Below are positions 53,697 to 57,420 of a stretch of DNA of 64,000 bases, piece after piece. Origin of the DNA: an uncultured Gammaproteobacteria bacterium (GTDB lineage Bacteria > Patescibacteriota > Microgenomatia > UBA10105). The stretch covers positions 16,316 to 80,315 of the forward strand of contig CAYPMW010000001.1 of NCBI GenBank assembly GCA_964412165.1, read 5' to 3'. The first letter of the stretch is position 1. The number at the start of each line of letters is the position of its first letter. Made by a program: the position numbers and the translations under genes. The notes beneath the pieces are model-generated. The model was not told the origin of the DNA, did not search any database, and worked only from the letters and a program-made list of their open reading frames with translations.

Positions 53697-54206
53697 ATGG
53701 ATGCAACTTCCCTTCAATTATCCTATAATATATCAATGAGTGGTAAAAGTGAACTAATCATTCCGTCAGCTGAGCTTCCGCGAGAATTATTAGATAACGA
53801 AGCGTTTAGACTTATTGATGAGTTTAGAAAAACATTTCGCGCAACTCCTGAGTTTCTCAAAGCTTTGGGAGAACATTATTTTGGTGAGCTTGATGATGGA
53901 CAACTGATTAAACCTGATAACCAAAGAAGCATTTCTTTCTGGTATAAAGGAGTACCATGGGAGGTTGAAGATAGATATACTGAGGATGGGCAGCGGTTAA
54001 GTGTAACCGTCACTAGTCCTGTCAATTTCCCATTTCAGACAATTTTGATTAGCTTGGTTGCGAAAAGAAAGATAGATCAAAAAAATCAAATTGAACCCAA
54101 AGTTCAGGCGATTGGGATAAATGAATCTTTACAACCGGTTATATACAGAAATTCGCAACAAGCAGTTGATGTTATATTAAGGATCTTAAATTTTTACAAA
54201 ATGTAG
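53697..54206 (+). CDS. Hypothetical protein, translationally coupled to ftsZ
   Basis: Its ATG lies immediately after the ftsZ TAA (53694-96). It is a 169-aa soluble protein with no family I can recognise. Confidence 0.4.
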   Translation: MDATSLQLSYNISMSGKSELIIPSAELPRELLDNEAFRLIDEFRKTFRATPEFLKALGEHYFGELDDGQLIKPDNQRSISFWYKGVPWEVEDRYTEDGQRLSVTVTSPVNFPFQTILISLVAKRKIDQKNQIEPKVQAIGINESLQPVIYRNSQQAVDVILRILNFYKM

Positions 54207-54282
54207 ATTCTGTTATATACTTAATGTAATTAAAAAGCGTTTGACTGGTAATCACCAGGGAATGTGTTTATACATCGCTGAA

Positions 54283-54579
54283 AGAAGAACATAGAGATCC
54301 TGTAATAAAATTCTAGTTAAATCTTGGAATTAAGGTTCAGGATGCGTATATAAGTAGACCTTTCCGGGTAAGCCCGTAATAGCAGGAAGTAAGGGTTGTA
54401 GGTAATAAGTTGTAGGTTGTAGGAAGAAATAAGTTTCTTACAACCCACAACCTACAACTGAAGTAAGGTGGTACCACGAATTAGTTAAGAGTTTAGAATT
54501 AAGTGTTAAGAATTCTAAGTTCTCAAACTATCGTCCTTAGATTCGACTACAATTGTGGTTGGAGATAAGGACCCTTTTT
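54283..54579 (+). promoter_or_regulatory. ileS leader with a T-box-like riboswitch signature (translational, SD-sequestering type)
   Basis: Leader of about 300 nt. Long imperfect hairpin at 54409-54458 (Stem III-like). T-box-like AAGGTGGTACCACG at 54465-78. Sequester hairpin GTCCTTA(54533-39)/TAAGGAC(54566-72) contains the SD AAGGA, followed by TTTTT at 54575-79 and the ATG at 54580. Alternative pairing AAGG(54465-68)/CCTT(54535-38) and ACG(54476-78)/CGT(54532-34) flanks the bulge UGGUACC. Confidence 0.5.
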
Positions 54580-57420
54580 ATGGTAAAAAAACACACATTT
54601 CAACCGGTTTCAGCGAAAGTAAACTTCCCCGAACTTGAAGAACGGATTCTTAAGTTTTGGAAAGAAAATCAGATTTTTGAAAAATCAATTGCAGCGCGAC
54701 CTGCATCAAAAACCTGGACGTTTTTAGACGGACCACCGTTTATTACCGGGCTTCCCCATTACGGGAGCCTTCTATCGAGCATTCCCAAAGATCTCTTCCC
54801 CCGTTACTGGACAATGAAGGGATATCGCGTGCGGCGAGTGTGGGGGTGGGATTGCCATGGACTTCCTGCGGAGAATAAGGTTGAGGATAAGTTGGGAATC
54901 ACGCGGAAAAAAGACATTGAAGAAAAAGTAGGCATCAAGAAATTTATTGAAGAATGCAAACTTTATGTGAGTGACGTTTCAGGAGAGTGGAAATGGTATG
55001 TGGACCATATCGGAAGGTGGGTTGATTTTGCACACGCCTACAAAACTATGGACATGCCGTACATGGAAACGGTGATGTGGGTATTTAAATCGCTCTATGA
55101 TAAAGGATACATTTACAAAGGCTTACGTGTATCACTTTACTGCCCCCATTGCGCCACTCCAATTTCAAATTTTGAAGTGGCAATGGATGCTGATAATTAT
55201 CGGTCAGTGACTGATCCGGGAACAATTTATAAATATCCTCTGCAAGATGTAAAAGATACGTACATATTAGCTTGGTCAACCACGCCGTGGAACAAACTCG
55301 TGACCCCGGCATTAGCGGTAAATCCCAAATTGATATACGTTAAAGTAGCACAGGCAGATGAATATTATATTCTGGCAAAATCTAGGGTAAAAATGCTAAA
55401 TAAGGAGCCTTTTAAAGTGGTAGATGAATTTCTTGGTCAAGAATTGGTAGGCAAAGCTTTCCAGCCACACTACGATTTCTATAAAGTAGATCCTGGTAAG
55501 AAAGCATTTATTATAGTGAACGGCGAGTTTGTGACCGCCGAGGAAGGTACGGGAGTCGTCACGATCGCCGCATACGGTGAGGAAGATTTGGCTGTCATGC
55601 AAAGGGAAAGCATCCAGATTGTCATGCATCTTGACGATGAAGGTATCCTCAAGCCGTTTGTGCCCAAATGGGGTGGAATGTATTATCTCAAAGCAAATAT
55701 TGAGATTAATAAAGATCTTGCGGCCCGTGGACTTATATATGATGATAAACCGTACTCTCATACCGTACCAACCTGCTGGAGATGTCATACACGACTTATA
55801 TTCGCTCCCCAGGATGCTTGGTATGTGAATGTACAATCGCTCAAAAAGAGGATGAAGGAGACTAATGAGGCAGTCAATTGGTTCCCCAAACACTTTAAGT
55901 ATGGTAGATACCTCAAAAGCCTTGAGTTTGCACCTGACTGGTGCATATCAAGGAGTAGATATTGGGGGTCGCCGGTGCCTGTGTGGGAGTGTGAGTGTGG
56001 CGAGAGATTCGTACCGGGTTCGATATCAGAACTAGAGATCCTATCAGGGAAGCATATTGCAGATCTACACAAACCGGCAATTGATCAGGTGACCATAAAG
56101 TGTCCAAAATGTAATCAACAGGCAAAACGCGTTCCTGAAGTGCTTGATAGTTGGATTGAGGCTGGATCTGCGCCTTTTGCTGAGCGTCATTTTCCATTTG
56201 AAAAAGACCTGAGACTCACAGACTTTTTTCCACCTGACTTTATTGTTGAATATACTGGGCAGATCAGAGCCTGGTTTTACGTGTTACACGTACTAGCCAC
56301 TGCGCTTTTTGAATCACACGCGTTTAAAAATGTGGTAGTTACTGGTGTTATTTTAGGAACTGATGGGCGAAAAATGAGCAAAAACTATGGTAATTACCCC
56401 GATCCCAAAGAATTGCTTCAGAAATATGGCGGCGATGCTCTACGCCTGTACCTCATGGGAAGTCCGGTGATGCATGGAGAAGACATTATCATTTCAGAAA
56501 ATGAATACCGCAATCAGGTCAAAGGAATGCTACTCATACTCTGGAACGTATATAACTTTTTTGTAACTAACGCTTTGGTTGATGGGTGGTCTGCGAAAAA
56601 TACTCCCCCCAAACCCGTACATGTTTTGGATAAATGGATCCTCTCCCGTCTTTATGAGCATATAGAGACCATGGCTGAAAAAGGGTATGAAAAGTATGAT
56701 AGCGTGTTTGTCGTACAGTCGGCAGAAAAATTTATACGCGAGTTATCATTATGGTACGTGCGGCGAAGTCGAAATCGCTTCGGGCCAGGTAGTCCGAATT
56801 CCATAGATAAAGAAAGAGCGTACCACACGCTGTGGTTTGTTTTAAAAGAATATGTTAAATCCATATCCCCGTTAATACCATTTGTTACTGAATCAATGTA
56901 TCGCAATCTTACTGGCGAGATTTCGGTTCACCTAGCGGACTGGCCCACACTTCCTTCTGAGTGGCGCAGTGTCATCCTTGAGAAGGATATGACAAATGCG
57001 ATAAAACTGGCATCCCGTGTTCATGCTTTCCGTAAACAGACGGGCGTGATAGTCCGAATTCCTATTAAAACGCTTGAATACACCGGACCAGACGAGATAA
57101 GTGGCCACGTTCGAGAGATACTTCTGGAAGAAATAAATGTGTATGATCTTGTTTACAAAGGCACGTCGAGTGACTATACTGTTTCTGGTAAAACGGATGA
57201 AATAAATCTTGATATTCAAGCAGGGTATGTGCGAAAAATTATCCGGCAAGTACAGAATCTCAGAAAAGAAAAAAAGTTAAACTTGAGCCAGCCGATCAAG
57301 CTCCAATTAGACGCACGCGATAAAGGGAAAATAACCAGCAATTTACTCGAAAAAATTAAGCAAAAAACACTCGCATCTGAAATCGTATGGGGAGACGGTC
57401 TTTCTATTTCGACTGGATAA
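54580..57420 (+). CDS. ileS: Isoleucine--tRNA ligase
   Basis: MVKKHTFQPVSAKVNFPELEERILKFW, the HIGH-region PHYGS, the KMSKS-type GRKMSKNYGN, an editing domain, and a total of about 946 aa. The start is at the internal ATG with the SD AAGGA 9 nt upstream. Confidence 0.9.
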   Translation: MVKKHTFQPVSAKVNFPELEERILKFWKENQIFEKSIAARPASKTWTFLDGPPFITGLPHYGSLLSSIPKDLFPRYWTMKGYRVRRVWGWDCHGLPAENKVEDKLGITRKKDIEEKVGIKKFIEECKLYVSDVSGEWKWYVDHIGRWVDFAHAYKTMDMPYMETVMWVFKSLYDKGYIYKGLRVSLYCPHCATPISNFEVAMDADNYRSVTDPGTIYKYPLQDVKDTYILAWSTTPWNKLVTPALAVNPKLIYVKVAQADEYYILAKSRVKMLNKEPFKVVDEFLGQELVGKAFQPHYDFYKVDPGKKAFIIVNGEFVTAEEGTGVVTIAAYGEEDLAVMQRESIQIVMHLDDEGILKPFVPKWGGMYYLKANIEINKDLAARGLIYDDKPYSHTVPTCWRCHTRLIFAPQDAWYVNVQSLKKRMKETNEAVNWFPKHFKYGRYLKSLEFAPDWCISRSRYWGSPVPVWECECGERFVPGSISELEILSGKHIADLHKPAIDQVTIKCPKCNQQAKRVPEVLDSWIEAGSAPFAERHFPFEKDLRLTDFFPPDFIVEYTGQIRAWFYVLHVLATALFESHAFKNVVVTGVILGTDGRKMSKNYGNYPDPKELLQKYGGDALRLYLMGSPVMHGEDIIISENEYRNQVKGMLLILWNVYNFFVTNALVDGWSAKNTPPKPVHVLDKWILSRLYEHIETMAEKGYEKYDSVFVVQSAEKFIRELSLWYVRRSRNRFGPGSPNSIDKERAYHTLWFVLKEYVKSISPLIPFVTESMYRNLTGEISVHLADWPTLPSEWRSVILEKDMTNAIKLASRVHAFRKQTGVIVRIPIKTLEYTGPDEISGHVREILLEEINVYDLVYKGTSSDYTVSGKTDEINLDIQAGYVRKIIRQVQNLRKEKKLNLSQPIKLQLDARDKGKITSNLLEKIKQKTLASEIVWGDGLSISTG

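Follow-up and report, generated by a model that had tools for sequence, protein, structure and literature searches.

The leader of ileS, the gene for isoleucine--tRNA ligase, in a stretch of 64,000 nt from contig CAYPMW010000001.1 raises the question of whether this RNA is a T-box for tRNA-Ile and, if so, whether it would act on transcription, on translation or on both. In the following, the whole stretch is called the window, and all coordinates are those of the whole window on its forward strand. A preliminary description of this DNA had proposed a translational T-box, likened it to the ileS T-boxes of Actinobacteria and considered a lineage resembling the Candidate Phyla Radiation (CPR). 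Our analyses leave hardly any doubt that the ileS leader is a T-box for tRNA-Ile. We are almost as confident that its OFF hairpin masks the Shine-Dalgarno sequence (SD) and at the same time resembles an intrinsic terminator.

Identification of the ileS leader as a T-box

The sequence AAGGTGGTACCACG at positions 54465-78 agrees with the T-box consensus in 12 of 14 positions. Such a 14-mer alone is not significant: allowing up to two mismatches, the window contains one match where 0.29 would be expected, and 23 of 100 shuffled sequences contained one. The bare TGGNACC occurs 19 times against 18.8 expected, i.e., at chance level. The significance hence comes from the whole architecture and not from short motifs. 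Rfam models at gathering score returned only a tRNA-Val over the whole window. With the T-box model RF00230, an E-value scan of a 501-nt stretch yielded 14.9 bits and a partial alignment, whereas the 321-nt leader by itself scored 31.4 bits and was assigned Stem II, Stem IIA/B, Stem III and the T-box. RF00230, in which the preliminary description had sought confirmation, thus gave a good E-value on the leader alone (1.8e-5) at a score far below the gathering score of 93. The low score is due to the missing distal part of Stem I; in the alignment, 92 Stem I positions of the model correspond to 2 nt in the window.

A covariance model built from 26 relatives, with the window left out of training (R1), matched the 64-kb window only once, at 54230-54456 with 64.5 bits (E=2.2e-17). 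In this alignment, the AUCA loop, Stem II, the S-turn and Stem IIA are placed at high posterior probability. The 3' end was misplaced onto Stem III (54395-54456), owing to the 66-nt Stem III and a 49-nt insertion in the A2 helix, so that the real T-box core adds nothing to the 64.5 bits. The true T-box at 54464-54539 was assigned via sequence and folding.

Homologous leaders precede ileS in other genomes. All 80 genome loci retrieved with the IleS protein of the window belong to CPR/Patescibacteria of Microgenomatia type (Gottesman-, Levy-, Woese-, Davies- and Roizmanbacteria) and encode an IleS with 58-69% identity, which bears out the surmised CPR-like lineage. In nine of these loci, AAGGTGGTACC[A/G]CG is located 40-80 nt upstream of ileS, and the leader elements follow one another as in the window: an extended -10 box, a short hairpin closed by AGC/GCU with ..AUCA.. 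as its terminal loop, GAAGAA ... AGUAGA, CCGGGUAAGCCCG, an optional hairpin, the T-box and finally a hairpin, a U-run and the ATG. R1 matched the same nine loci and no others among the 80, five of them outside its training set. Conservation upstream of ileS therefore extends to nine CPR genomes and many metagenome contigs, but not to the remaining 71 loci, which lack a T-box according to R1. In metagenomes, the pattern of the S-turn/IIA core gave at least 120 matches, of which 80 were kept; in about 65 of these UGGNACC follows 16-145 nt downstream, and most lie upstream of ileS. Short-Stem-I ileS leaders of relatives reach 55-105 bits with R1, and the window ranks below most of them. An identical protein aside, the nearest full-length IleS has 67-68% identity to that of the window; at locus L098, IleS is 81% identical over 111 aa, and the leader shares the conserved cores only.

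MAFFT alignments slipped register in Stem I and in the A1 3' strand, and we hence used a model-based alignment, which is biased toward the model structure. Among 86 aligned R1 sequences, 90.9% of the pair cells are standard (67.4% in shuffles), 523 cells carry double-sided changes (about 150 in shuffles), and the covariation score is 0.60, compared with 0.19 in shuffles and 0.03-0.12 with partners slid by 1-3 columns. The lower helix of Stem II is paired in 98% of the cases with five of five pairs covarying; A1 and A2 are paired in 92% and 90%, with nine of nine pairs covarying. Stem I pairs covary as well. The Stem IIB pseudoknot region is near-invariant, so covariation is uninformative there. 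The pairing of AAGG with CCTT and of ACG with CGT around TGGTACC (54469-75), proposed earlier as the alternative fold, is thus present in the window and both conserved and covarying in relatives.

The specifier could be located by comparison. In every ileS relative, a hairpin of 4-7 bp with a freely varying stem sequence displays AUC plus a purine in its terminal loop, and the corresponding triplet in the window is AUC 54251-53. The aligned column reads ATC in 50 of 52 ileS loci and GTC in three valS-like loci (about 25% identity with the IleS of the window). It reads GAC (L117, L143, L155) or AAC (L139, L141) before genes of non-discriminating aspartyl-tRNA synthetases and GAC before an archaeal-type phosphoenolpyruvate carboxylase gene (L115); two loci that are valS by family search (L125, L138) show no clean aligned triplet. 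The register of the specifier is fixed because the triplet tracks the downstream gene, the classical T-box criterion. Specificity for tRNA-Ile, as suggested before, would thus follow from the AUC-A specifier and the correspondence of codon and gene. The preliminary description had, however, chosen another AUC as its specifier, at 54321-23. By folding, both this ATC and the nested hairpin around it (~54296-54345) exist, but they belong to a distal, non-conserved extension of Stem II, the ATC to its apical part, and the relatives have nothing equivalent. The start at 54283 given in that description likewise cuts off Stem I together with the specifier, as the element begins at ~54228.

The same short-Stem-I class is found upstream of genes for non-discriminating aspartate--tRNA(Asn) ligases, with GAC (Asp) or AAC (Asn) as specifier. 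From these triplets, this enzyme family would appear to be under tRNA-Asp in some lineages and under tRNA-Asn in others. An unusual target is the archaeal-type phosphoenolpyruvate carboxylase open reading frame (ORF) at 9128 of L115 (oriented coordinates; TIGR02751, 493 bits), about 45 nt downstream of its GAC T-box, which presumably ties oxaloacetate supply to tRNA-Asp charging.

Bacterial tRNA-Ile normally carries A73. The variable base of the T-box bulge in the window, U54472, would pair with this discriminator if present. Some ileS T-boxes have UGGA (L104, L107, L108) or UGGC (L111, L129) in the bulge, and for their lineages one would expect that the discriminator of tRNA-Ile is not A73.

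Two exclusive folds and a proposed mechanism

The sequence motifs of the preliminary description were all found where it had put them, i.e., in addition to the 14-mer, GTCCTTA (54533-39), TAAGGAC (54566-72), AAGGA (54567-71), T5 (54575-79) and ATG (54580). As it had also noted, AAGGA lies inside the competing helix, within 54566-72. Judged by sequence and spacing, AAGGA probably acts as SD. The energy comparison of sequestering and antisequestering folds, likewise outlined there, was carried out for 54459-54585. The OFF fold is the minimum energy structure with -35.6 kcal/mol, and the ON fold reaches -27.4 kcal/mol. Both folds have 54533-39 in common and are mutually exclusive. The OFF hairpin alone has -20.8 to -21.9 kcal/mol (z=-6.6). 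OFF is hence the default state, being more stable by about 8 kcal/mol, and by analogy with other T-boxes this amount would have to be supplied by tRNA binding.

Modelled on solved T-box-tRNA complexes (PMC7583486), we infer the following course of tRNA binding, of the reaction to its charging state and of the control of ileS. The GAU anticodon of tRNA-Ile would pair with the specifier AUC, which the ultrashort Stem I exposes in its terminal loop. This anticodon contact would be backed by Stem II, including the S-turn, and by Stem IIA/B, which would take the place of the absent platform for the tRNA elbow. If the tRNA is uncharged, its 3' ACCA could pair with UGGU 54469-72 and stabilise A1 and A2 in the ON fold. 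This would keep 54533-39 from pairing with 54566-72, such that no OFF hairpin forms, the polymerase enters ileS and the SD AAGGA is free. With charged tRNA or no tRNA at all, the OFF hairpin would form and bury the SD, and the hairpin followed by CC and U5 would resemble an intrinsic terminator at the AUG.

Several points weigh against a tRNA-Ile T-box with an OFF hairpin of this kind. Neither the window with its 31.4 bits nor the relatives with 33-72 bits attain the RF00230 gathering score of 93. The alignment behind the covariation values was made to fit the model and contains the sequences used for training, and the invariance of Stem IIA in all model hits is partly forced by the pattern used for retrieval. 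No tRNA-Ile gene was found in the window or in 120 loci, so that the GAU anticodon and A73 are expectations for this lineage. As a terminator, the hairpin of the window is sub-canonical, with an AU-rich lower stem of 7 bp (three G-C pairs), a CC spacer and only U5, and a simple terminator scan of the window did not call it because its loop was too long.

Transcriptional or translational control

We think that the OFF hairpin works at both levels. SD masking probably contributes; it is structurally unavoidable when the OFF helix forms, because the SD with its 8-nt spacing lies inside this helix. For termination, we see a slight balance of probability in favour of a contribution. The claim of a translational T-box hence stands as far as the SD is masked by the OFF hairpin, but it leaves aside the U-run and the canonical intrinsic terminators that relatives have as their corresponding hairpin. 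Of 13 close relatives that share the layout, 12 have a stem (-14 to -23.5 kcal/mol) with U6-U9 immediately behind it; the AUG follows 0-1 nt on, and the SD is located in the 3' arm. In the window, these terminator features are weakened, and SD masking may thus weigh more than in the relatives.

Other short-Stem-I ileS T-boxes have their terminator 11 to >700 nt before ileS, sometimes with an intervening ORF. In some relatives, by eye also in the closest one, L098, the terminator lies at least 200 nt from the start codon, and terminators of this type cannot mask the SD at that distance. A terminator classifier applied to 41 loci found 14 abutting and 10 remote terminators and none, or no parsable one, in 17. 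As the classifier is conservative and misses obvious cases (L098, L113, L132), these counts are lower bounds, i.e., at least 24 of the 41 loci have a terminator. Remote terminators were assigned by the classifier in L091, L092, L093, L095, L099, L126, L129, L130, L154 and L157 and by eye in L098, L113, L132, L134 and L140. They are found on low-GC metagenome contigs, some with a small ORF before ileS. High-GC loci of the same class have no U-runs; going by their GC content alone, we would guess that they are actinobacterial-like.

Two narrower explanations are sub-cases of the dual function and differ from it only in the level of output. In a purely translational T-box, the hairpin 54533-72 would be an SD sequestrator only and U5 a mere A/U-rich spacer. 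AAGGA in the 3' arm at a good distance of 8 nt would suit this, as would the ultrashort Stem I and the Stem III/A2 insertions, which are hallmarks of translational T-boxes (PMC7583486, PMC11297988), and the weak terminator of the window with its CC spacer and U5 that escaped the scan. We nevertheless consider it rather unlikely that translation is the only level of control. The U6-U9 runs behind the stems of the same-layout relatives are needless for SD sequestration, terminators occur far from the start codon in related short-Stem-I ileS T-boxes, and the high-GC loci show that the same architecture can do without U-runs.

Less likely still is a purely transcriptional attenuator, in which AAGGA would be a mere complement of the conserved CCUU strand with no regulatory role of its own. 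Indeed, the 3' arm of every T-box terminator must repeat the purine-rich 5' strand of the T-box, terminators are common in the short-Stem-I class, and L154 has AAGGA in the arm although its U-run ends 11 nt before the AUG, beyond normal SD spacing. In the window, however, there is no other SD between the hairpin and the AUG, and the only SD is paired in the refolded OFF RNA; moreover, its U-tract is short and set apart from the stem. A dual function of the OFF hairpin is our preferred reading. Since the 3' arm copies the purine-rich T-box strand (AAGG...), a terminator becomes an SD sequestrator when the start codon slides up to the U-run. In the subgroup to which the window belongs, the terminator has shifted until it abuts the AUG.

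Insertions and integrity of the element

The features of the locus are collected in Table 1. The long hairpin that had been noted before the T-box is present in the position of Stem III. It spans 54394-54459 by folding, with -28.3 kcal/mol compared with -9.3 kcal/mol in shuffles (z=-7.4). Stem III contains three direct copies of GTTGTAGG and their complements, which occur nowhere else in the window, and it looks like it was lengthened through local repeat expansion. We rejected the possibility that the insertions are dispersed repeats, as within the window they are present only at this leader. For Stem II, the helix proposed by RF00230 (UAAGGUU/GACCUUU) was dropped in favour of GAAAG/CUUUC, the conserved and covarying helix of the relatives.

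Table 1. Features of the ileS leader and its surroundings in the window
Feature	Position	Strand	Remarks
Promoter, sigma-70 type (predicted)	54193-54221	+	-35 TTTACA 54193-98, 17-nt spacer, -10 TATACT 54216-21
ileS leader, whole element	~54228-54579	+	~350 nt
Stem I domain	54236-54279	+	base helix AGCG 54236-39 / CGCU 54276-79
Kink-turn (K-turn)-like bulge UUU plus GA	54240-42 and 54243-44	+	K-turn suggested by the sequence pattern
Specifier hairpin	54245-58	+	CUGG 54245-48 / CCAG 54255-58, loop UAAUCA 54249-54
Specifier codon AUC (Ile) plus conserved 3' purine A	54251-53 and 54254	+
Inserted hairpin at the Stem I base, optional	54262-75	+
Stem II	54280-54364	+	lower helix GAAAG 54280-84 / CUUUC 54360-64
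Stem II purine string AAGAA	54285-89	+
Stem II distal extension, lineage-specific	54291-54351	+	nested hairpin of the preliminary description
Stem II S-turn AGUAGA	54353-58	+
Stem IIA hairpin CGGG-UAAG-CCCG, part of IIA/B	54365-54376	+	aligned by RF00230 and R1
Stem III, strongly elongated	54394-54459	+	GTTGTAGG repeats and complements; position of RF00230 Stem III
Antiterminator/antisequestrator (ON)	54464-54539	+	A1 UAAGG 54464-68 / CCUUA 54535-39
T-box bulge UGGUACC, 7 nt	54469-75	+	UGGU 54469-72 for the tRNA 3' end
A2 helix ACGA / UCGU	54476-79 / 54531-34	+	capped by the inserted hairpin 54482-54530
OFF hairpin (terminator/SD sequestrator)	54533-54572	+	lower stem 54533-39/54566-72, upper stem 54542-50/54555-63
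Shine-Dalgarno sequence AAGGA (putative)	54567-54571	+	8 nt 5' of AUG, within the 3' arm of the OFF hairpin
CC spacer	54573-74	+	between OFF stem and U5
U5 tract	54575-54579	+	possible terminator tail, also SD-AUG spacer
ileS start codon AUG	54580	+
ileS, isoleucine--tRNA ligase, regulated gene	54580-57420	+	TIGR00392, 719.8 bits

Elongations of this size could mean that the leader is a decaying or non-functional T-box relic, broken by four or five insertions. The unusually large insertions, an R1 score below that of most relatives, the 71 of 80 related CPR loci without a T-box, and several of the closest loci, where just a promoter is present ~15 nt ahead of the ATG, would fit such a relic. 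In the window, however, the conserved core is intact (AUCA, AAGAA, AGUAGA, CGGG/CCCG, UGGUACC and CCUUA) and all helices are complementary. Each insertion is a self-contained helix extension at a site that varies, and is thus tolerated, among relatives, and the ON and OFF folds still exclude each other, at an energy difference that is plausible. We hence judge a relic very improbable and continue to regard the leader as an intact T-box. A chance resemblance to the T-box consensus in AT-rich intergenic DNA, for which the motif frequencies and the lack of an Rfam match at gathering score could be quoted, is virtually nil and already refuted by the E-value of 2e-17 from a model blind to the window, the homologous leaders before the orthologous gene, the covariation and the codon-gene correspondence.

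The leader is also not a product of faulty assembly. An independent assembly (L201) contains an identical leader over 361 nt, and a second one (L202) differs only in ~18 nt at its own contig end; the insertions are therefore no assembly artefacts.

Promoter, neighbouring genes and related loci

A promoter scan found 10 of 12 consensus matches for the sigma-70-type promoter of the leader, located just past the upstream stop codon. Transcription would start at ~54228, and from this promoter position a leader length of about 350 nt follows. By eye, the relatives have equally spaced extended -10 boxes (TGnTATAnT-type).

Upstream of ileS are ftsZ and an ORF of 169 aa, and rodA follows downstream. 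The 169-aa ORF (53697-54206), for which NCBIfam gave no match, starts with the base right after the ftsZ stop and terminates inside the ileS promoter, its stop codon lying between the -35 and the -10 box. The rodA-like ORF (TIGR02210, 335 bits, cutoff 336.7) shares 34 nt (57387-57420) with the 3' end of ileS. This overlap suggests that both genes are co-transcribed, and the reach of the T-box may thus extend to rodA.

Loci without a T-box show other arrangements. The closest Gottesmanbacteria relatives (L001, L003, L006, L007) have no leader; instead, a conserved CCTGATATAAT(A/G)AAGAAAnCAGTATG is found ~25 nt upstream of ileS. The position of their -10 box, ~15 nt 5' of the ATG, implies a very short 5' untranslated region without obvious SD. 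In L008, the last ~120 nt before ileS contain an SD-bearing hairpin and a U-run (CCGCTCGTCCTT...AAGGAGAGCGGTTTTATAATG) like those of the T-box subgroup, but no T-box core and no R1 match. This leader may be a decayed T-box or a leader of another type.

Several of the retrieved records (L002, L008, L009, L011, L014) and many other third party annotation (TPA) records of metagenome-assembled genomes bear the title 'uncultured Gammaproteobacteria bacterium', with an IleS 58-69% identical to that of the window. They rank interleaved with Gottesman- and Levybacteria, and the organism labels of such TPA records look wrong.

Comparison with known T-box systems

CPR bacteria have minimal genomes, and little is known of their regulation; a tRNA-charging sensor before ileS would mean that they directly monitor amino-acid supply. 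The full-text literature that was searched yielded no paper connecting T-boxes with CPR, Patescibacteria or named CPR groups, which is not proof of absence, and a recent perspective on Patescibacteria treats riboswitches only as prospective tools. The class II model of TBDB was applied to Actinobacteria only (PMC7778990). With 31-72 bits against a threshold of 93, the present group is invisible to Rfam-based annotation, and a dedicated model is needed.

More interesting as a lead than the single element is the wider pattern of short-Stem-I T-boxes with terminators in uncultured lineages. We see an even chance that such T-boxes are widespread in CPR/Patescibacteria and other uncultured low-GC bacteria, remain below the Rfam threshold and commonly drive intrinsic terminators, although they have no elbow platform, which is held to be required for rapid capture of the tRNA during transcription. 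Short-Stem-I T-boxes would then not be confined to Actinobacteria and to translation, and the subgroup of the window, with one hairpin as terminator and SD sequestrator at once, would be an intermediate. If this is true, a path by which transcriptional T-boxes give rise to translational ones would become visible, and CPR bacteria, which rely on hosts for their amino acids, would have their first described case of natural riboswitch-type control over an aminoacyl-tRNA synthetase. Reviews tie the long Stem I with elbow docking to transcriptional and the short Stem I to translational control, with a kinetic argument (PMC7583486, PMC11297988). An ultrashort Stem I on a terminator platform runs against this usual link, and the short-Stem-I loci with terminators are natural test cases for the need of elbow docking in co-transcriptional decisions. 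The subgroup of the window, in which the terminator is fused with SD and start codon, is a plausible evolutionary bridge that connects the two classes of T-box.

Compared with canonical T-boxes of the RF00230 type, for example, tyrS and glyQS of Bacillus subtilis, the window shares the T-box sequence with its 7-nt bulge, the competition of A1/A2 with a downstream hairpin and U-run, the order of Stem II, IIA/B and Stem III, and a K-turn-like Stem I base. In contrast, it lacks the distal Stem I and thereby the platform of AG bulge and distal loop, its specifier is found in a terminal and not in an internal loop, and the SD is part of its terminator, which adjoins the start codon. With the short-Stem-I ileS T-boxes of L091, L093, L095, L098, L126, L129 and L154 it has the core sequences and the AUCA apical loop in common, whereas their terminators, 11 to >700 nt upstream, do not mask the SD and that of the window abuts the AUG.

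The closest likeness in architecture had been sought in Actinobacteria, and the short Stem I agrees with this. The actinobacterial ileS T-boxes are translational 'class II' elements (Mycobacterium tuberculosis/smegmatis, Nocardia farcinica; Sherwood et al. 2015 and structures 6UFG/6UFM, cited in PMC7583486). In this actinobacterial translational type, the specifier is apical on an ultrashort Stem I, the Stem II domain is essential, and Stem III and A2 carry insertions (PMC7583486, PMC11297988). The window shares with this type the regulated gene, an AUC plus purine displayed apically on an ultrashort Stem I, the absence of an elbow platform, Stem II with S-turn, IIA/B, the Stem III/A2 insertions and an SD placed within the 3' arm of the OFF helix. 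The element described here differs in its origin from low-GC CPR (Microgenomatia), in the extra hairpin at the base of Stem I and in the U-run that follows the OFF helix and abuts the AUG, where relatives have a canonical terminator.

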